A stretch of DNA of 32,946 bases. Source: a virus (taxonomy: Duplodnaviria > Heunggongvirae > Uroviricota > Caudoviricetes). How positions within the stretch are numbered: position 1 is the first letter of the stretch; the number at the start of each line of letters is the position of its first letter. Location of the stretch: the IMG/VR virus record IMGVR_UViG_2713897042_000007; one strand, written 5' to 3'. Of this stretch, positions 4,330 through 27,535 are shown one piece after another. Both the position numbers and the translations under genes were made by a program. Under the pieces are notes generated by a model. The model had not been told where the DNA came from and did no database searches. It worked only from the letters and a program-made list of their open reading frames with translations.

Positions 4330-6604
4330 AGCCTCCGGGCGTTTTGTCCCTCCGTCAGCATTTGCCGCAGGCACCGGTGAGACGTTTACCGGTGCTTATG
4401 CATGGAACGCGCCACGCGAGGCCGTCGGGCGCGAAAGACCCCTTACACGTGACGAGATGCGTCAGGTGCAAGGTGCTTTATCCACGATTAACCGCCTGCC
4501 TTACTTTTTGCGCTCGCTGTTTACTTCACGCTATGACTACATCCGGCGCAATAAAAGCCCGGTGCACGGGTTTTATTTCCTCACATCCACTTTTCAGCGT
4601 CGTTTATGGCCGCGCATTGAGCGTGTGAATCAGCGCCATGAAATGAACACCGACGCGTCGTTGCTGTTTCTGGCAGAGCGTGACCATTATGCGCGTCTGC
4701 CGGGGATGAATGATAAGGAGCTGAAAAAGTTTGCCGCCCGTATCTCATCGCAGCTTTTCATGATGTATGAGGAACTCTGCGATGCCTGGGTGGATGCGCA
4801 TGGCGAAAAAGAATCGCTGTTTACGGATGAGGCGCAGGCTCACCTCTATGGTCATGTTGCTGGTGCTGCACGTGCTTTCAATATTTCCCCGCTCTACTGG
4901 AAAAAATACCGTAAAGGACAGATGACCACGAGGCAGGCATATTCTGCCATTGCCCGCCTGTTTAACGATGAGTGGTGGATTAGTCAGCTTAAAGGCCAGC
5001 GTATGCGCTGGCATGAGGCGTTACTGATTGCTGTCGGGGAGGTCAATAAAGACCGTTCACCTTATGCCAGTAAACATGCCATTCGTGATGTGCGTGCACG
5101 CCGCCAGGCAAATCTGGAATTTCTTAAATCGTGTGACCTTGAAAACAGGGAAACCGGCGAACGCATCGACCTTATCAGTAAGGTGATGGGCAGTATTTCT
5201 AATCCTGAAATTCGCCGGATGGAGCTGATGAACACCATTGCCGGTATTGAGCGTTACGCCGCCGCAGAGGGTGATGTGGGGATGTTTATCACGCTTACCG
5301 CGCCGTCAAAGTATCACCCGACACGTCAGGTCGGAAAAGGCGAAAGTAAAACCGTCCAGCTAAATCACGGCTGGAACGATGAGGCATTTAATCCAAAGGA
5401 TGCGCAGCGTTATCTCTGCCATATCTGGAGCCTGATGCGCACGGCATTCAAGGATAATGATTTACAGGTCTACGGTTTGCGTGTCGTCGAGCCACACCAC
5501 GACGGAACGCCGCACTGGCATATGATGCTTTTTTGTAATCCACGCCAGCGTAACCAGATTATCGAAATCATGCGTCGCTATGCGCTCAAAGAGGATGGCG
5601 ACGAAAGAGGAGCCGCGCGAAACCGTTTTCAGGCAAAACATCTTAACCGGGGCGGTGCTGCGGGGTATATCGCAAAATACATCTCAAAAAACATCGATGG
5701 CTATGCACTGGATGGTCAGCTCGATAATGATACCGGCAGGCCGCTGAAAGATACTGCTGCGGCTGTTACCGCATGGGCGTCAACGTGGCGCATACCACAA
5801 TTTAAAACGGTTGGCCTGCCGACAATGGGGGCTTACCGTGAACTACGCAAACTGCCTCGCGGCGTCAGCATTGCTGATGAGTTTGACGAACGCGTCGAGG
5901 CTGCACGCGCCGCCGCAGACAGTGGTGATTTTGCGTTGTATATCAGCGCGCAGGGCGGGGCAAATGTCCCGCGCGATTGTCAGACTGTCAGGGTCGCCCG
6001 TAGCCCGTCGGATGACGTTAACGAGTACGAGGAAGAAGTCGAGAGAGTGGTCGGCATTTACGCGCCGCATCTCGGCGCGCGTCATATTCATATCACCAGA
6101 ACGACGGACTGGCGCATTGTTCCGAAAGTGCCGGTCGTTGAGCCTTTGACTTTAAAAAGCGGCATCGCCGCGCCTCGGAGTCCTGTCAATAACTGTGGAA
6201 AGCTCACCGGTGGTGATACTTCGTTACCGGCTCCCACACCTTCTGAACACGCCGCAGCAGTGCTTAATCTGGTTGATGACGGTGTTATCGAATGGAATGA
6301 CCCGGAGGTCGTGAGGGCGCTCAGGGGCGCATTAAAATACGGGCTGAGAACACCAAATCGTCAGCAGAGAAACGGAAGCCCGTTAAAACCACATGAAATT
6401 GCACCATCGGCCAGACTGACCCGGTCGGAAAGAATGCAAATTACCCGTATCCGCGTTGACCTTGCTCAGAACGGTATCAGGCCGCAGCGATGGGAGCTTG
6501 AGGCGCTGGCGCGTGGCGCGACCGTAAATTATGACGGGAAAAAATTCACGTATCCGGTCGCTGATGAGTGGCCGGGATTCTCAACAGTAATGGCGCGGAT
6601 ATAA
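4319..6604 (+). CDS. A: Rolling-circle replication initiator A (HUH endonuclease)
   Basis: Start at the in-frame ATG 4319 gives 761 aa, the P2 A length (track ORF from 4277 is 775 aa). HUH motif TPHWHMMLF and paired tyrosines GYIAKYISK. Confidence 0.92.
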   Translation: MAVKASGRFVPPSAFAAGTGETFTGAYAWNAPREAVGRERPLTRDEMRQVQGALSTINRLPYFLRSLFTSRYDYIRRNKSPVHGFYFLTSTFQRRLWPRIERVNQRHEMNTDASLLFLAERDHYARLPGMNDKELKKFAARISSQLFMMYEELCDAWVDAHGEKESLFTDEAQAHLYGHVAGAARAFNISPLYWKKYRKGQMTTRQAYSAIARLFNDEWWISQLKGQRMRWHEALLIAVGEVNKDRSPYASKHAIRDVRARRQANLEFLKSCDLENRETGERIDLISKVMGSISNPEIRRMELMNTIAGIERYAAAEGDVGMFITLTAPSKYHPTRQVGKGESKTVQLNHGWNDEAFNPKDAQRYLCHIWSLMRTAFKDNDLQVYGLRVVEPHHDGTPHWHMMLFCNPRQRNQIIEIMRRYALKEDGDERGAARNRFQAKHLNRGGAAGYIAKYISKNIDGYALDGQLDNDTGRPLKDTAAAVTAWASTWRIPQFKTVGLPTMGAYRELRKLPRGVSIADEFDERVEAARAAADSGDFALYISAQGGANVPRDCQTVRVARSPSDDVNEYEEEVERVVGIYAPHLGARHIHITRTTDWRIVPKVPVVEPLTLKSGIAAPRSPVNNCGKLTGGDTSLPAPTPSEHAAAVLNLVDDGVIEWNDPEVVRALRGALKYGLRTPNRQQRNGSPLKPHEIAPSARLTRSERMQITRIRVDLAQNGIRPQRWELEALARGATVNYDGKKFTYPVADEWPGFSTVMARI

Positions 6605-6816: not shown

Positions 6817-6936
6817 TCAATGTGATAGATGGTGCCTCGCAAACGTAAATGATAGTTTTGAAGCTTCAGGGCTGATGTCGTTCATAAGACTGTGTTTACG
6901 CTATCATTTATGATAAAAATAATTAATTTTTATCAT
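6817..6936. promoter_or_regulatory. Putative promoter/operator of the cargo operon
   Basis: AT-rich region upstream of the 6961 start. Palindrome ATGATAAAAA-N7-TTTTTATCAT at 6910-6936. Related TGATAG/ATGATA copies at 6822-6830, 6846-6854 and, inverted, 6901-6909. Confidence 0.4.
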
Positions 6937-6960
6937 AAAGATTCAACAGAGGATATGTTG

Positions 6961-8466
6961 ATGAATCAACTAAAATCAATGAATATCAATAAGTTACTTT
7001 TGGATGTTGATAACCCTCGTTTCCCGACGTCAGCAGAAAATCAGCGTGATGCTATTGCCAAGATGCTTGACTTGCAGTACGACCGCATTTATCGCTTGGC
7101 TAAAGATATTGCTTCGAAAGGTTTAGATCCGTCTGAAAACATATTAGTTTATCCTAGTGAAGAGGAATCTGGCTTTTTCGTCGTTGCTGAAGGTAATCGT
7201 CGAGTTACAGCCCTTAAACTTTTACACTCTCCTAGACTTGCACCAACAGAAAAAGCACGGAAAGCTTTTGAAAAACTTAAGATTACTCAGCTTAAAGATA
7301 TTAATGTTATAGATAACTGCGTTCTTTTTGACGATGATGAATATGAGCATTGGGTCAATTTAAAGCATACTGGTCAAAATGCTGGAGTTGGAAGAGTTGA
7401 ATGGACTGCAACAGAAAAAGCACGACATCTGGCTAGGATGGGTAAGCAGTCATTTGGTAATCAAATACTTACATTTATAGAGTTCAATACTGATTTATAT
7501 AAAGAGATAATTGCTAAAAAAAGACTTTTAAAAATCACAAACATCACGCGTCTTTTTGGTGATTTAAAGGTGAGGGATTATTTTAATTTAAAAAGCATTA
7601 ATGGAGTTCTATACTCATATCAGCCTTATGAACGTTTTTGTGCACAATTAAAAAATATTTTAGATGTAATGATTGAAGAGGATGATAAAGGTAAGGCTTG
7701 TTTTACTGTTAATAGGATTCGTAGCCAAGATGACAGGGTTACATTTATTATTGAACAAAAAATAAAACCTTCAGAATCTCTTTTAGATAAGCCGTGGAGT
7801 TTACTAGAGCCTAAATCTTTTCTTACAGAGAAAAAACATGATTCTATTGACAAAAATGATGCATCTGTGAGTGTAAAGAAAGTAGGTCTTTCAGAAGGTG
7901 ATGCCTTAAAGAATACAGGTGTGGATAAACAGGAAGATGATTATTCTAGACATGTAGGCACAGAAGAGAGTAAATCTAAAGTTTCGGGTACGGAACAGAA
8001 TAAAAACAAGGGAAAAACTCCTCCTAAAGTAGATCGTAATGTGTTGGTGCCATCTTATGTGAAATTTAATTTTAGAGGGCATAAGAAATGCTCTAGAATA
8101 TTTAATGAGCTTAAGTCGCATCTGACATTTGATAACACCCCTAATGCTATCTCAATATTGTTGAGAATATTTATAGATCTCTCTGTAAGCACTTTTGTTG
8201 AAGAAAACAAGTTACAATTTAAGGAACCACATAGAACTCCAGGGCTTCATGATAAGGTTAAAATGTGTGCTAATTTCCTTCGGGAAAATAAAAAGATGAC
8301 GGGGAGTCAATGTACGGCTGTAATAACTTTCTCGAGCCAAATAACTAAACATGATGGTTCATTGCAGCAGTATGTACATAACCCACACTTAATTCCCTCA
8401 AAAGAGGCTGTCAACACTGAGTGGGATAACTTTGAGTTGTTATTAAGCCTTATTTGGAGTGAGTGA
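6961..8466 (+). CDS. ParB/Srx-like N-terminal domain protein with uncharacterised C-terminal region (cargo)
   Basis: About 501 aa from the ATG at 6961 (GAGGA 7 nt upstream; in-frame alternatives at 6955 and 6892). N-terminus has ParB-type motifs (DVDNPRF; VVAEGNRRVTALKLL, the GxRR box). Central K/E/S-rich low-complexity linker. Visibly AT-rich against flanking phage genes. Confidence 0.7.
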   Translation: MNQLKSMNINKLLLDVDNPRFPTSAENQRDAIAKMLDLQYDRIYRLAKDIASKGLDPSENILVYPSEEESGFFVVAEGNRRVTALKLLHSPRLAPTEKARKAFEKLKITQLKDINVIDNCVLFDDDEYEHWVNLKHTGQNAGVGRVEWTATEKARHLARMGKQSFGNQILTFIEFNTDLYKEIIAKKRLLKITNITRLFGDLKVRDYFNLKSINGVLYSYQPYERFCAQLKNILDVMIEEDDKGKACFTVNRIRSQDDRVTFIIEQKIKPSESLLDKPWSLLEPKSFLTEKKHDSIDKNDASVSVKKVGLSEGDALKNTGVDKQEDDYSRHVGTEESKSKVSGTEQNKNKGKTPPKVDRNVLVPSYVKFNFRGHKKCSRIFNELKSHLTFDNTPNAISILLRIFIDLSVSTFVEENKLQFKEPHRTPGLHDKVKMCANFLRENKKMTGSQCTAVITFSSQITKHDGSLQQYVHNPHLIPSKEAVNTEWDNFELLLSLIWSE

Positions 8467-8535
8467 GATTTGTCTACATCTGGACATGGATGTCCAGAAA
8501 CTGATAAACTACAAAATCAGGAATGAGAGGGATTT

Positions 8536-9420
8536 ATGAAATTTTATACTCCATTAAGATACCCCGGCGGGAAAGGTAAGTTATCTTACTTTTTAAAAGA
8601 TGTTATTGAAAAAAACTCGTTGAATGATGGAGCATATGCAGAACCTTACGCTGGTGGTGCAGGGGTGGCTTTAGAATTATTATTGGAAGAGTATGTCCGT
8701 AAAATCTATATAAATGATGCAGATTTTGCTGTTTATTCTTTTTGGTCATCTGTTGTTAGTGATACTGATGAGCTTTGCCGACTTATTAGCCGAGCAAAGA
8801 TAGATATGGATGAATGGTCTTTTCATCGCTATGTTATTTCGAATCCTTCTGAGTTTACTAAGCTTGAGGTTGGCTTTGCTGCGTTTTTCTTAAATAGAAC
8901 AAATCGTTCAGGTATTCTCAAGGCGGGGGTTATAGGCGGGAAATCACAAAATGGAAAATGGAAAATGGATGTTCGCTTTAACAGGGCGGATTTAATTTCA
9001 AGAATTGAGAAGATAGCAAATTATAATCAAAGAATAGTAGTAACTAATCTGGATGCTTTGGATTTTCTTGATGCCTTGAATTTTATGGATAATATGGGAA
9101 AGGTGGATAAAAATAAAATTCTTTTGTATTTGGATCCTCCTTACTATATTAAAGGGCAAGGGCTTTACAGGAATTTTTATGAGCATGATGACCATGTATT
9201 GGTTATGAAGAAACTCACAGAAATTAATTTCCCAAATTGGCTTGTTTCTTATGATAACGCTAAGGAAATTAAAGATATTTATAATGGATTTCCGCAAGTT
9301 GAGTATTCATTGCAATATACAGCGCATCTCAAAAAATCTGGAGAGGAAGTGATGATTTTTTCTCCTGAAATAATTATTCCTAATACCCTGAAAGGGGTCT
9401 CAATTCCAACTTGCGCCTGA
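8536..9420 (+). CDS. Dam-family (D12 class) N6-adenine DNA methyltransferase (cargo)
   Basis: 294 aa. N-terminal RYPGGKGKL, AdoMet-binding EPYAGGAG and catalytic DPPY align to the same positions as in E. coli Dam. RBS GAGAGGG upstream. AT-rich, co-oriented with the gene before it. Confidence 0.85.
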   Translation: MKFYTPLRYPGGKGKLSYFLKDVIEKNSLNDGAYAEPYAGGAGVALELLLEEYVRKIYINDADFAVYSFWSSVVSDTDELCRLISRAKIDMDEWSFHRYVISNPSEFTKLEVGFAAFFLNRTNRSGILKAGVIGGKSQNGKWKMDVRFNRADLISRIEKIANYNQRIVVTNLDALDFLDALNFMDNMGKVDKNKILLYLDPPYYIKGQGLYRNFYEHDDHVLVMKKLTEINFPNWLVSYDNAKEIKDIYNGFPQVEYSLQYTAHLKKSGEEVMIFSPEIIIPNTLKGVSIPTCA

Positions 9421-24173: not shown

Positions 24174-24701
24174 ATGCAGCATTTAAAAAATATTACTGCG
24201 GGTAATCCAAAAACTGTTGCCCAATATCAACTGACAAAAAATTTTGATGTTATCTGGTTATGGTCCGAAGAGGGAAAAAACTGGTATGAGGAAGTAAGTA
24301 ATTTTCAGGAAGACACGATAAAGATTGTTTACGACGAGAATAATATAATTGTCGGCATCACCAGAGATGCTTCAACGCTTAACCCTGAAGGTTTTAGCGT
24401 TGTCGAGGTTCCTGATATTACCGCCAACCGACGTGCTGATGACTCAGGTAAATGGATGTTTAAGGATGGTGCTGTGATTAAGCGGATTTATACGGCAGAC
24501 GAACAGCTGCAACTGGCGGAATTACAGAAGTCAGCTTTGCTTTCCGAAGCTGAAACTATCATTCAGCCACTGGAACGCTCTGTCAGACTGAATATGGCAA
24601 CAGATGAGGAGCGTAGCCGACTGGAAGCATGGGAACGCTACAGTGTTCTGGTCAGCCGTGTGGATCCTGCAAATCCTGAATGGCCGGAAATGCCGCAATA
24701 A
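24174..24701 (+). CDS. G: Tail fiber assembly chaperone G
   Basis: 175 aa, the P2 G length, immediately after H. Confidence 0.88.
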
Positions 24702-24735
24702 GTTGTATGATCTCTGGAGTGAGCTAACGTATCTA

Positions 24736-24890
24736 TAGCACAGAGTAAAGCCTAATCTGACAGTCTGCTCTGTGCTAGGAGCGGACTGACCTGCTCCCCG
24801 ATGATTAATACACAGCTATGCTAGTAATGTCCGTAGATCGCTGTGTGTTGCATCCATCGGTTGAACTCACAGTCCAAACCAGACTGTCAG
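24736..24890. repeat. Inverted-repeat-rich non-coding leader
   Basis: 10-bp perfect stem TAGCACAGAG (24736-24745) / CTCTGTGCTA (24768-24777). 11-bp inverted pair CTGACAGTCTG (24757-24767) / CAGACTGTCAG (24880-24890). No ORF in the track covers this region. Confidence 0.6.
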
Positions 24891-25122
24891 CTTTGATTAG
24901 ATTCTACCTACTCAACCTGTCAGATAAGGTCTGAGCTAATACATCTAATATATGGCTTTGTGCAGGGGACGGCTATCGCGAACGTTAGGCCAGGTATCTG
25001 AATACGCACAGTTCACTTGGTTGTACTTCTTGCACTGATCTGCTATCCCGCACAGCTATTTATAGGTAATCTTCAGTGTATAATCTGCCAACTTATGGAA
25101 GCTTGTACAACAGGAGAAATAT

Positions 25123-25965
25123 ATGAAAAAAGAATTGTTTGGACGTTGCCCGTTTGATCTTGACGAAGATGTAAAAAAAATAGCCGCGATAAATAAATAT
25201 ATCCATGCAAAATTTGAGGAGCATAAAAATAAAATAGACAACCTAAAGGGTGTGGAACAAAAATTGATGGTCTTACAGTACTTTAATGTACTGAATGAAC
25301 TTAGTAATCAGGCTATCTCTTCTTTGAATATAGGAGCCTTTTCAGCATCGGAAGTATTAGCTAGGGTTATAATAGAACAGGCTGCCAATCAATTTTATAT
25401 AGCAATAGATGATGGCGAAAATGCACAAGCGTTACTCAAGGCTAGTAAGAAATTAGTTCATAGTAATGGAAAACGGTGGCTGGAGTGTTTAAAATCCAAA
25501 GGAATGACTAATCCAGCAGCAAATGAAAGGATTCGCATGGGAAAAGAACTAACTGATCTATTTAATAGATTGTGGCCAAATACACCTGAATATCCAGGAA
25601 CCAGAAAACTTTTTGAATTAATTGGCTGGGAAACACACTATCATGCCCATTACGTTCCCCTTTGTGATTCAATACATACATTCTCTGATGATATGGTAAA
25701 TATAGTATCTCTATATAATGCAATCCAAAGTGATGAAACTACTGCTATCGAATTCATTCTTGCAGTTAAACAAGAAAATAAACGGCTGGCAATTTATAAT
25801 TTTGTAATTGCTACGGCCCTTCGGTGTGAGGCCTTAGTAAATGTATTTAACTCTTTAGGTTATCAGGATATTATAACAGAAATGACACCAACAATAGATA
25901 CAGTCAACCAGACTATAATTCGATATGATGATTTTGATCATTCCAGAATTGATGATTGTCAATAA
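25123..25965 (+). CDS. Hypothetical cargo protein (position of P2 Z/fun)
   Basis: 280-aa ORF with AGGAGA RBS and a TATAAT-like element about 40 bp upstream. Strongly AT-rich. No catalytic motif I can recognise. Confidence 0.7.
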   Translation: MKKELFGRCPFDLDEDVKKIAAINKYIHAKFEEHKNKIDNLKGVEQKLMVLQYFNVLNELSNQAISSLNIGAFSASEVLARVIIEQAANQFYIAIDDGENAQALLKASKKLVHSNGKRWLECLKSKGMTNPAANERIRMGKELTDLFNRLWPNTPEYPGTRKLFELIGWETHYHAHYVPLCDSIHTFSDDMVNIVSLYNAIQSDETTAIEFILAVKQENKRLAIYNFVIATALRCEALVNVFNSLGYQDIITEMTPTIDTVNQTIIRYDDFDHSRIDDCQ

Positions 25966-26071
25966 TTAATTGACAGAATACGTACATGCGCAACAACTAG
26001 TGATAGTTGACTTATTTTCGCTCTTGAGAGACAACCATACTCAAATCTCCCACATTGCAGGAGATTTGAAT

Positions 26072-26179
26072 ATGAAAACATCACCGTGGAATAAAGACCG
26101 TACCATCGGTCAAAAAAGGCCACTTCAGATATCTCATATCTGGGGGATCCGGATTAGACTTGAGTTGGAAGGTAAATAA
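26072..26179 (+). CDS. Possible small basic peptide
   Basis: 35-aa ORF (MKTSPWNKDRTIGQKRPLQISHIWGIRIRLELEGK) with AGGAGA 8 nt upstream. A weak GGGCA/TGCCC hairpin plus T-rich tract follows. Confidence 0.3.
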   Translation: MKTSPWNKDRTIGQKRPLQISHIWGIRIRLELEGK

Positions 26180-26344
26180 ATTGTCAGTCGGAAAATAAGT
26201 GAGTACAAATTAGGGCAGGTGAGCGAATTGCCCGCCTTTTCTTTACCGGTGGTTGTGCTGTCGATTAGCCAACCGGGACAAATAGCCTGACATCTCCGGC
26301 ACAACTGAAAATACCACTCACCCATTAACCACGGAGTTAAACGG

Positions 26345-27535
26345 ATGAGCGACTATCATCATGGCGTGCAGGTGCTGGAGATTAACGACGGCACCCGCGT
26401 CATTTCCACCGTATCCACCGCCATTGTCGGCATGGTCTGCACGGCCAGCGATGCGGATGCGGAAATCTTCCCCCTCAATAAACCGGTGCTGATCACCAAT
26501 GTGCAGAGCGCAATTGCAAAGGCCGGTAAAAAAGGCACGCTGGCGGCATCGTTGCAGGCCATCGCTGACCAGTCAAAACCGGTCACCGTTGTCGTGCGCG
26601 TGGAAGACGGAACCGGCGACGACGAAGAAACGAAACTCGCGCAGACCGTTTCCAATATTATCGGCACCACCGACGAAAACGGTCAGTACACCGGACTGAA
26701 AGCCCTGCTGGCGGCGGAGTCGGTAACCGGTGTTAAACCGCGCATTCTCGGTGTGCCGGGACTGGACACCAAAGAGGTGGCTGTTGCACTGGCATCAGTC
26801 TGTCAGAAGCTGCGCGCTTTCGGGTATATCAGCGCATGGGGCTGTAAAACCATTTCCGAGGTGAAAGCCTACCGTCAGAATTTCAGCCAGCGTGAGCTGA
26901 TGGTCATCTGGCCGGATTTCCTCGCATGGGATACGGTCACCAGTACCACCGCCACCGCGTATGCCACCGCCCGTGCACTGGGCTTGCGCGCTAAAATCGA
27001 CCAGGAGCAGGGCTGGCATAAAACACTGTCCAACGTCGGGGTGAACGGTGTTACCGGCATCAGCGCATCTGTATTCTGGGATTTGCAGGAGTCCGGCACT
27101 GATGCTGACCTGCTTAACGAGTCAGGCGTCACAACGCTGATTCGCCGTGATGGTTTCCGCTTCTGGGGTAACCGTACCTGCTCTGATGACCCGCTGTTCC
27201 TCTTTGAAAACTACACCCGCACCGCGCAGGTGCTGGCCGACACGATGGCTGAGGCGCACATGTGGGCGGTGGACAAGCCCATCACCGCAACGCTGATTCG
27301 CGACATCGTTGACGGCATCAATGCCAAATTCCGTGAGCTGAAAACAAACGGCTATATCGTGGATGCGACCTGCTGGTTCAGCGAAGAATCCAACGATGCG
27401 GAAACCCTCAAGGCCGGAAAACTGTATATCGACTACGACTATACACCGGTGCCTCCTCTCGAAAACCTGACCCTGCGCCAGCGTATTACCGATAAATACC
27501 TGGCAAATCTGGTCACTTCGGTTAACAGCAATTAA
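26345..27535 (+). CDS. FI: Contractile tail sheath protein
   Basis: 396 aa, the P2 FI length. Confidence 0.93.
   Translation: MSDYHHGVQVLEINDGTRVISTVSTAIVGMVCTASDADAEIFPLNKPVLITNVQSAIAKAGKKGTLAASLQAIADQSKPVTVVVRVEDGTGDDEETKLAQTVSNIIGTTDENGQYTGLKALLAAESVTGVKPRILGVPGLDTKEVAVALASVCQKLRAFGYISAWGCKTISEVKAYRQNFSQRELMVIWPDFLAWDTVTSTTATAYATARALGLRAKIDQEQGWHKTLSNVGVNGVTGISASVFWDLQESGTDADLLNESGVTTLIRRDGFRFWGNRTCSDDPLFLFENYTRTAQVLADTMAEAHMWAVDKPITATLIRDIVDGINAKFRELKTNGYIVDATCWFSEESNDAETLKAGKLYIDYDYTPVPPLENLTLRQRITDKYLANLVTSVNSN

Follow-up and report, generated by a model that had tools for sequence, protein, structure and literature searches.

In P2-like phages, the interval that separates gene G, for tail-fibre assembly, from the tail sheath gene FI has been described as the second (Z/fun) hotspot of these phages, and it holds validated defence genes (PMC9519451; bioRxiv 10.1101/2024.10.15.618418; PMC13586616). 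In P2 the hotspot carries fun, and three further systems from it were validated by Vassallo et al. (PMC9519451). Here, we describe the same interval in IMG/VR record IMGVR_UViG_2713897042_000007, a complete P2-like (Peduovirus) prophage; the whole stretch of 32,946 nucleotides that was analysed is referred to as the window. Judged by its sequence, the interval contains a single-gene accessory ("moron") cassette that encodes a 280-aa protein of the DUF5677 family. The hotspot is known, and the uncharacterised cargo gene is what is new. We consider it very probable that this is a functional, acquired accessory gene, and tentatively favour a role in anti-phage defence, to which we give a little less than an even chance.

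An earlier reading of the DNA without database searches (the sequence-only reading) had noticed that the tightly packed late genes are broken between G and FI and had named the interval as the second variable hotspot of P2-like phages, in agreement with the published work on hotspots. The listing of open reading frames (ORFs) and the Pfam matches confirm a gap of 1643 nt. G (24174..24701; PF02413, E 6.7e-34) ends at 24701 and FI (26345..27535; PF04984, PF17482 and PF22671) starts at 26345; they form the left and right conserved flanks of the hotspot and both lie on the + strand, as do the features placed between them below. The gap holds one long ORF of 280 aa (25123-25965), described earlier as AT-rich, and its GC content is indeed 0.32-0.37 compared to 0.50-0.58 in the adjoining late genes. 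In the nearly identical region of E. coli MS7163, the counterpart of G is named "tail fiber assembly protein" in RefSeq, and the cargo is given as a "DUF5677 domain-containing protein" followed by an incomplete "integrase".

By sequence comparison, the interval is a three-part mosaic of P2 left backbone, a foreign block, and P2 right backbone. The gap is thus real, but the 1.6-kb insert that had been proposed is too long: the foreign DNA is limited to 24787-26176 (1.39 kb), and both ends, 24702-24786 and 26177-26344, are conserved P2-family backbone. On the left, 24672-24788 is 92-93% identical to the start (positions 1-117) of the Z-region records of P2-EC58 and P2-EC46 (GenBank AJ512683 and AJ512680), where it is annotated as "left inverted repeat". 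The part of this repeat that falls in the gap (24702..24786), with a hairpin at 24736-24777, is accordingly backbone and not cargo. On the right, 26177-26344 aligns without gaps to P2 17484-17651 at 97.6% identity and includes the rest of the "right inverted repeat". Transfer of the P2 annotations by offset places the binding site of the PF activator (Ogr) at ~26248-26276 and the PF/F-operon transcription start at ~26319-26321. A GC hairpin with a U-rich tail is found at 26212-26245, its folding energy alone not being significant (z -0.4). Located between G and FI and bounded by the Z-region inverted repeats and the PF promoter, the cassette belongs to the cargo of the P2 Z/fun hotspot.

The foreign block resembles DNA from lambdoid prophages. 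Positions 24838-26176 are 89.5% identical to a lambdoid-prophage block (loci L004-L009) that encodes an 87%-identical protein (P0002). In the lambdoid prophage of E. coli E2348/69 the match begins at 24791 (85% identity), and in a Buttiauxella metagenome-assembled genome (L017) it spans 24763-26176 at 96% identity; these two matches also cover the non-coding part of the block at 24787..25078. In the donor loci, a 200-aa tyrosine recombinase consisting of the catalytic domain only (PF00589) is encoded directly after the DUF5677 ORF on the same strand. Its gene is intact in the Buttiauxella locus and in L010, and frameshifted in E2348/69. In the window, homology to the donor stops at 26176, and the block keeps the first 105 nt of the recombinase gene. 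A 35-aa ORF had been noted here as part of the cargo. It exists (26072..26179), but 33 of its 35 residues are identical to the N-terminus of the L010 integrase, and it is a pseudogene remnant, the 5´ stub of the tyrosine recombinase, and not as a functional part of the cassette. The donor was a lambdoid-type locus, or a source common to both, as the other contexts have the whole recombinase and the window only its truncated form.

The two junctions differ in kind. The left crossover lies inside a 24-nt palindrome at 24763..24786 (GTCTGCTC-TGTGCTAG-GAGCGGAC; consensus GTCCGCTC-TGTGCCAA-GAGCGGAC), since homology to the cassette runs from its first base and homology to the P2 left repeat extends to 24786-24788. 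At the right junction (26176/26177) the parents share GTAAA only, and the joining looks like an illegitimate, microhomology-mediated event that deleted the 3´ portion of the recombinase gene along with the left half of the "right inverted repeat" of P2. In sum, the 1.39-kb block was captured from a lambdoid-type prophage hotspot by a left crossover in the palindromic boundary repeat common to both hotspot types and a right junction at the GTAAA microhomology. The captured DNA comprises ~290 nt of upstream sequence with a -10 box and a ribosome-binding site (RBS), the DUF5677 gene, and the 5´ part of the recombinase gene.

The cargo protein is a member of the Pfam family DUF5677 (PF18928; 40.1 bits, gathering threshold 27.1, E 5.3e-10, residues 50-194). 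It matches phrog_4167 (E 9e-202), which is annotated as of unknown function, and corresponds to WP_000711882.1, a "DUF5677 domain-containing protein" in RefSeq. All 63 relatives in our alignment (A2) also match DUF5677, and a Pfam scan of these members gave nothing beyond this family. The protein belongs to a rare branch, which has 80 representatives (50% identity) in a set of 1.84 billion proteins and 11 clusters in an index of 5.8 billion proteins; nearly all of the full-length members are 270-300 aa, and a search for related loci with the narrow alignment returned two loci. Among complete E. coli genomes, 57 of 5426 (~1%) carry the gene. The copy is at least 99% identical in 38 of these, including S88 and APEC (avian pathogenic E. 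coli) O1/O2:K1 strains, and 90-95% identical in the other 19, including E2348/69. The two identity groups presumably correspond to P2-type and lambdoid-type copies, respectively. The gene is found in two different prophage hotspots. Every copy is intact, and the ratio of nonsynonymous to synonymous substitution rates between five contexts is 0.20-0.34 (Nei-Gojobori), which points to purifying selection on the gene.

The sequence-only reading had proposed the 280-aa protein as a candidate single-gene exclusion or abortive-infection factor and had left its relation to P2 Fun open. A diverged homologue of Fun(Z) that likewise excludes T5 can practically be dismissed. The two have their position between G and FI in common and nothing else: the best BLASTP match to Fun(Z) (NP_046777) has an E of 0.88 and covers 80 residues at 23% identity, the proteins are 280 and 528 aa in length, and the genes are on opposite strands. 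Membership of the Fun(Z) family was consequently rejected at the sequence level. As a hypothesis, the single-gene exclusion factor is nevertheless a fair one because the ORF is an intact, selected, and horizontally acquired single gene; what supports the exclusion function itself is associative.

These associations come from the neighbours of homologues, and a defence role is plausible because relatives adjoin Septu, Lamassu, and Dcm-type clusters in prophage hotspots. In E2348/69 (L016), the gene order is replication protein P, a DUF1627 remnant, DUF5677, the recombinase, and Septu, such that the Septu genes start two genes downstream of DUF5677 (PtuA, PADLOC E 1.9e-165; PtuB, E 1.1e-83). This strain is the prototype of enteropathogenic E. 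coli (EPEC), and its 87%-identical DUF5677 gene before the complete Septu system is found in the lambdoid prophage at NC_011601.1 1277241-1281117. DUF5677 homologues are also placed immediately behind replication genes of the lambda-P type; the one in L015 comes after lambda P and is near Lamassu LmuB (E 4.7e-224). In L013, the gene follows CI, Cro, and HNH genes, and the same region includes a Dcm gene as well as an AAA_15/21 gene. A 41%-identical relative on a metagenomic lambdoid contig (L022) and a 22%-identical relative in Leptospira barantonii (L020) adjoin one and the same cluster of Dcm (C5 DNA methylase), Methyltransf_35 (PF20553), and HATPase_c_3 genes (7020-10546 in L022 and 2922-7151 in L020). 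The Leptospira copy of the cluster additionally has a Vsr gene. The recurrence of this cluster beside DUF5677 in two unrelated lineages could reflect co-residence in defence islands or a functional link. In Bacillota, DUF5677 is statistically enriched beside serine recombinases in defence-rich contigs (preprint, PMC12632615).

Several observations count against a defence function. The comparison with defence databases that the sequence-only reading had suggested found no family at E <= 1 in PADLOC-DB v2.0.0, including the PD-T4, PD-T7, and PD-Lambda models, and NCBIfam gave no match to the 280-aa protein. The gene is absent from all 50,697 GenBank phage records. Hotspots of this type also hold toxins, tail-fibre modules, and invertases (bioRxiv 10.1101/2024.10.15.618418), and residence in a hotspot is guilt by association. 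Finally, a DUF5677 ORF was tested in E. faecalis against six phages and was not among the 5 of 9 ORFs that were protective (PMC12632615); that protein is a very distant Bacillota member in a heterologous host. An alternative is that DUF5677 is a selected accessory gene with a non-defence role, e.g. in host physiology, lysogenic conversion, or phage regulation, that rides recombination-prone hotspots. The mixed nature of hotspot cargo, the lack of a PADLOC match, the outcome for the only DUF5677 ORF that has been tested, and the lack of a recognisable catalytic motif all agree with this. We consider it rather unlikely, though the strongest of the alternatives, given that the gene is repeatedly a neighbour of Septu, Lamassu, and Dcm-type clusters, that it resides in two independent hotspots of the defence type, and that defence morons typically have, as it does, a foreign GC content and mobility as single genes.

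The lambdoid context, with the gene directly upstream of Septu, raises another possibility, namely that the product is a counter-defence or inter-phage competition factor that shields the prophage or its host, e.g. by inhibiting a neighbouring or competing defence system. A small, soluble, helical protein without an enzyme signature would suit such a role. Anti-defence genes are, however, rare in P2 elements (28 of 1511; PMC13586616), the P2 context has no Septu partner, and the neighbours differ among the distant homologues, all of which makes this quite improbable. The favoured reading is that the DUF5677 product would act alone as a phage-exclusion or abortive-infection protein, expressed in the lysogen from the gene's own promoter.

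As to mechanism, modelling suggests that the product is a soluble, all-helical protein of ~32 kDa. AlphaFold2 with the 63-sequence alignment predicts a ten-helix bundle (pLDDT 95.1, pTM 0.92). R81 is invariant across the alignment, and L79, E85, N89, W119, P158, F164, Y173, H185, D190, and N193 are conserved in at least 90% of it. R81, E85, and N89 are spaced i/i+4/i+8 on one helix, and H185, D190, and N193 are also among the most conserved residues. Our best guess is that the protein binds or cleaves nucleic acid (RNA) through a helical core of HEPN type, the active site of which would be non-canonical and use R81/E85/N89 and H185/D190/N193. A HEPN-like nuclease mechanism is unlikely in our estimate, and the HEPN-likeness is a lead and not a classification, because it finds no echo in the following comparisons. 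Foldseek against PDB gave no significant match (best E 0.12; TM <= 0.26 by query length), and a sequence-profile search of PDB returned no relatives. The catalytic Rx4-6H motif is lacking: R81, the one invariant Arg, is followed by E85 and N89 and no His, and H185 is 104 residues away. The alignment of A2 to an AbiV (PF18728) protein by hhalign, which was the one HEPN family compared directly, has a probability of 1.5%, and no HEPN family is found among the Pfam families listed at E <= 10 for the 63 members.

The cassette probably brings its own promoter. The promoter-like and RBS elements noted earlier were found to be conserved in all five contexts compared, i.e. a perfect -10 box TATAAT at 25079-25084 with a weak -35, and an RBS AGGAG at 25112-25116, 6 nt before the ATG. 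The position of the -10 box implies a 5´ untranslated region of just ~30 nt that is unstructured. A scan for consensus promoters made no call at this TATAAT because the -35 is poor. Taken together, the sequence elements make it probable that a promoter of the gene's own drives its expression in the lysogen. The cargo ORF may also be reached by late transcription of the V operon, because the terminator scan found no intrinsic terminator on the + strand after G. In P2, a rho-independent terminator of the V operon is annotated right after G (P2 15639-15666), and the hairpins at 24702-24800 in the window have no U-tract. Downstream of the ORF, a hairpin with a 15-bp stem (26036..26074; inverted repeat I5, 93% complementary) precedes the recombinase stub and overlaps its start codon. 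The 110-nt stretch 25966-26075 that includes it folds with z -3.2, and the lambdoid donors have this hairpin too. Its role may be to regulate the recombinase or to terminate transcription of the DUF5677 gene.

Upstream of the ORF, a structured leader of ~420 bp had been proposed. The 421 nt do fold better than shuffled sequences (z -2.9 overall and -3.9 for 24702-24940), with two adjacent hairpins at 24736-24797 (z -4.4) and one of 63 nt at 24798-24860 (z -4.5). However, the structured part is the first ~190 nt and coincides with the recombination-boundary repeats. We assign the structure to these repeats and not to an mRNA leader because the -10 box, conserved together with the RBS in the five contexts, is only ~40 nt before the ATG, because the 50 nt immediately ahead of the ATG lack structure, because the upstream spacer of more distant homologues measures merely 98-140 nt, and because there are neither tandem repeats nor an Rfam match. 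An inverted, degenerate half-core at 24875-24897 (inverted repeat I1) shares a 23-nt match with the core of the "right inverted repeat" of P2-EC58. The first 43-54 nt of the 63-nt hairpin (24789-24842) match scattered chromosomal and plasmid sites in E. coli at 85-91% identity, some of them adjoining RES-domain genes. By sequence, this suggests that the 63-nt hairpin, too, is a dispersed boundary repeat.

The strength of folding (z -2.9 to -4.5) is also what could be expected if the ~420-nt region encoded a functional RNA partner of the protein, such as a type III toxin-antitoxin-like antitoxin, a riboregulator, or a guide. This is very unlikely. Tandem Repeats Finder detected 0 arrays and thus no ToxI-like array, and an Rfam scan of 24500-26500 at E <= 10 gave matches at chance level only, the best of which (E 1.2) is far below the gathering score. 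With neither a tandem-repeat nor a known structured RNA gene directly upstream, the locus falls outside the type III toxin-antitoxin and other RNA-protein systems. The structure consists of P2 backbone repeat and boundary palindromes that are found beside unrelated cassettes as well, the conserved -10 box is downstream of it, and the upstream spacer of the more distant homologues is short.

The boundary palindrome is not restricted to this locus. When up to 3 mismatches are allowed, a 16-mer within it, TGTGCCAAGAGCGGAC, recurs between the cassettes of P2-EC46, of lambdoid loci, and, in four copies, of the Buttiauxella array, always in one orientation apart from a single overlapping match with 3 mismatches in L010. 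One of the lambdoid copies is directly after the recombinase gene. In alignments, the 16-mer is part of a 24-nt palindrome of 8-8-8 layout that often comes after a second GTCCGC...GCGGAC unit. Sequence matches to the palindrome are found at 100 and 1619 in L003, at 1843, 3059, and 5684 in L010, at 6808 in L016, at 5772, 6513, 7649, and 10299 in L017, and within 7966-10637 in L072 and 2245-5287 in L084. In IMG/VR, 81 stretches contain the exact pattern GTCCGCTNTGTGCCANGAGCGGAC, the rough chance expectation for its 22 specified bases being well below one. Of the 80 stretches analysed, 47 have it ~65 nt downstream of a G gene of P2 type, and the other 33 have it elsewhere. Some loci are arrays of 4-5 core sites with a spacing of 0.8-1.2 kb, in which the cassettes are single genes, e.g. 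for GIY-YIG, DUF6650, a glyoxalase-family protein, and AbiV. Pairwise homology ends within 10 nt of the core in 86 cases versus 4.3 expected (~20-fold), a figure that overstates the independence of the loci, which are interrelated. Two further motif occurrences were set aside: one at 5981, which falls within gene A, was put down to chance, and a third element (CTGTCAG / TGTGCCAAGAGCGTAC) after the lambdoid recombinase gene matches the left repeat of P2 over 14 nt (E 0.7), a hint that lacks significance by itself. In L017, a Hin/Gin-type serine invertase (Resolvase and HTH_7; 5164-5742) is encoded directly upstream of the palindrome-delimited array with the DUF5677 cassette, which recalls the reported link of serine recombinases with defence cargo.

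One reading of this pattern is that the palindrome GTCCGCTC-TGTGCCAA-GAGCGGAC and its flanking repeats constitute the recombination site of a cassette-exchange system, in which the small 200-aa tyrosine recombinase, the stub of which remains in the window, acts in trans and DUF5677 is one of the defence cargos that have so far escaped notice. In an integron-like manner, cassettes of one gene each (DUF5677, AbiV, GIY-YIG, and others) would travel between the P2 tail-gene hotspot and the lambdoid post-replication hotspot. A recurring, site-like repeat at cassette boundaries is what we observe. An intact cognate recombinase is not found in the element, which has the 35-codon stub only, and the small recombinase is near 6 of the 33 non-P2 loci and 0 of the 47 P2-type loci. 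We regard the system as improbable on present sequence comparisons; recombination by short homology at the palindrome repeats, acting as "linkers", accounts for the data equally well. A site-specific model may not be a new idea: the Z-region inverted repeats were reportedly defined by Nilsson et al. in 2004 (Mol Biol Evol 21:1), in a paper the title of which suggests one. The consensus spacer GTGCCAA (GTGCTAG at 24771-24777 in the window) is apparently identical to the 7-bp spacer of the sfx sites of the R64 shufflon, which are acted upon by the tyrosine recombinase Rci; this may be a coincidence.

The same recombinase might be thought of as the partner of the cargo protein, such that DUF5677 is an accessory factor for directionality or cassette mobility and the P2 copy a relic. 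The recombinase gene is directly after DUF5677 on the same strand in E. coli lambdoid prophages and in Buttiauxella, and the enrichment beside serine recombinases in Bacillota (PMC12632615) would fit. However, tblastn found no such recombinase near the homologues of 41-53% identity, for which reason it was rejected as a conserved partner of DUF5677, and the 38 P2-type copies stay intact and under purifying selection without it. This explanation, too, has very little probability in our view, and the favoured one remains a cargo gene that functions by itself.

Most cargo of the fun locus is still uncharacterised, and the DUF5677 cassette is a compact candidate for study: a single protein of 280 aa with a confidently predicted fold, no solved or annotated relative, and a small set of conserved residues. 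Among the E. coli lineages that carry it are clinically relevant ones, including extraintestinal pathogenic E. coli (ExPEC) S88, APEC O1/O2:K1, and EPEC E2348/69. A defence function, if true, would establish a new family of single-gene defence systems and provide a function for DUF5677. The locus also offers evidence at the level of single bases for movement of cargo between unrelated phage types, by one crossover in a shared 24-nt palindrome and one at a microhomology, and this bears on why the cargo of hotspots is replaced so rapidly. Some support for a defence role also comes from elsewhere in this prophage: its first hotspot (6892-9420, between A and Q) has a complete two-gene PD-Lambda-5 defence system with proteins A (524 aa, PADLOC E 6e-168) and B (methyltransferase-like, 294 aa, E 1.5e-121).

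In comparison with known systems, the protein is unrelated to Fun(Z) and to all PADLOC models, those of PD-T4, PD-T7, and PD-Lambda included, and it belongs to a rare ~280-aa branch of Pfam DUF5677, a family without known function. It differs from the HEPN abortive-infection RNases (AbiV, AbiD/F, and HepT) in having no Rx4-6H motif, in the distance of ~100 residues between its sets of conserved residues, and in its ten predicted helices as opposed to the minimal HEPN domain of four or five. The palindrome-bounded loci are reminiscent of integron attC and shufflon sfx systems in their short single-gene cassettes, the recurring imperfect palindrome between them, the breakpoints at repeats, and the tyrosine recombinase gene within some arrays. 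Unlike in integrons, the recombinase is a catalytic domain of 200 aa and not IntI, it is absent from 47 of 47 P2-type loci, and the right junction of the DUF5677 cassette is a microhomology and not a site. The closest likeness is to the Z/fun cargo of P2 and its relatives. The DUF5677 gene is co-oriented with the late genes, unlike fun, which is on the opposite strand, and the recombinase stub replaces part of the right repeat found in the Z regions of P2-EC46 and P2-EC58. As in these phages, however, a foreign gene of low GC content that brings expression signals of its own is placed at the same locus between G and the sheath gene, within the same left and right inverted repeats.

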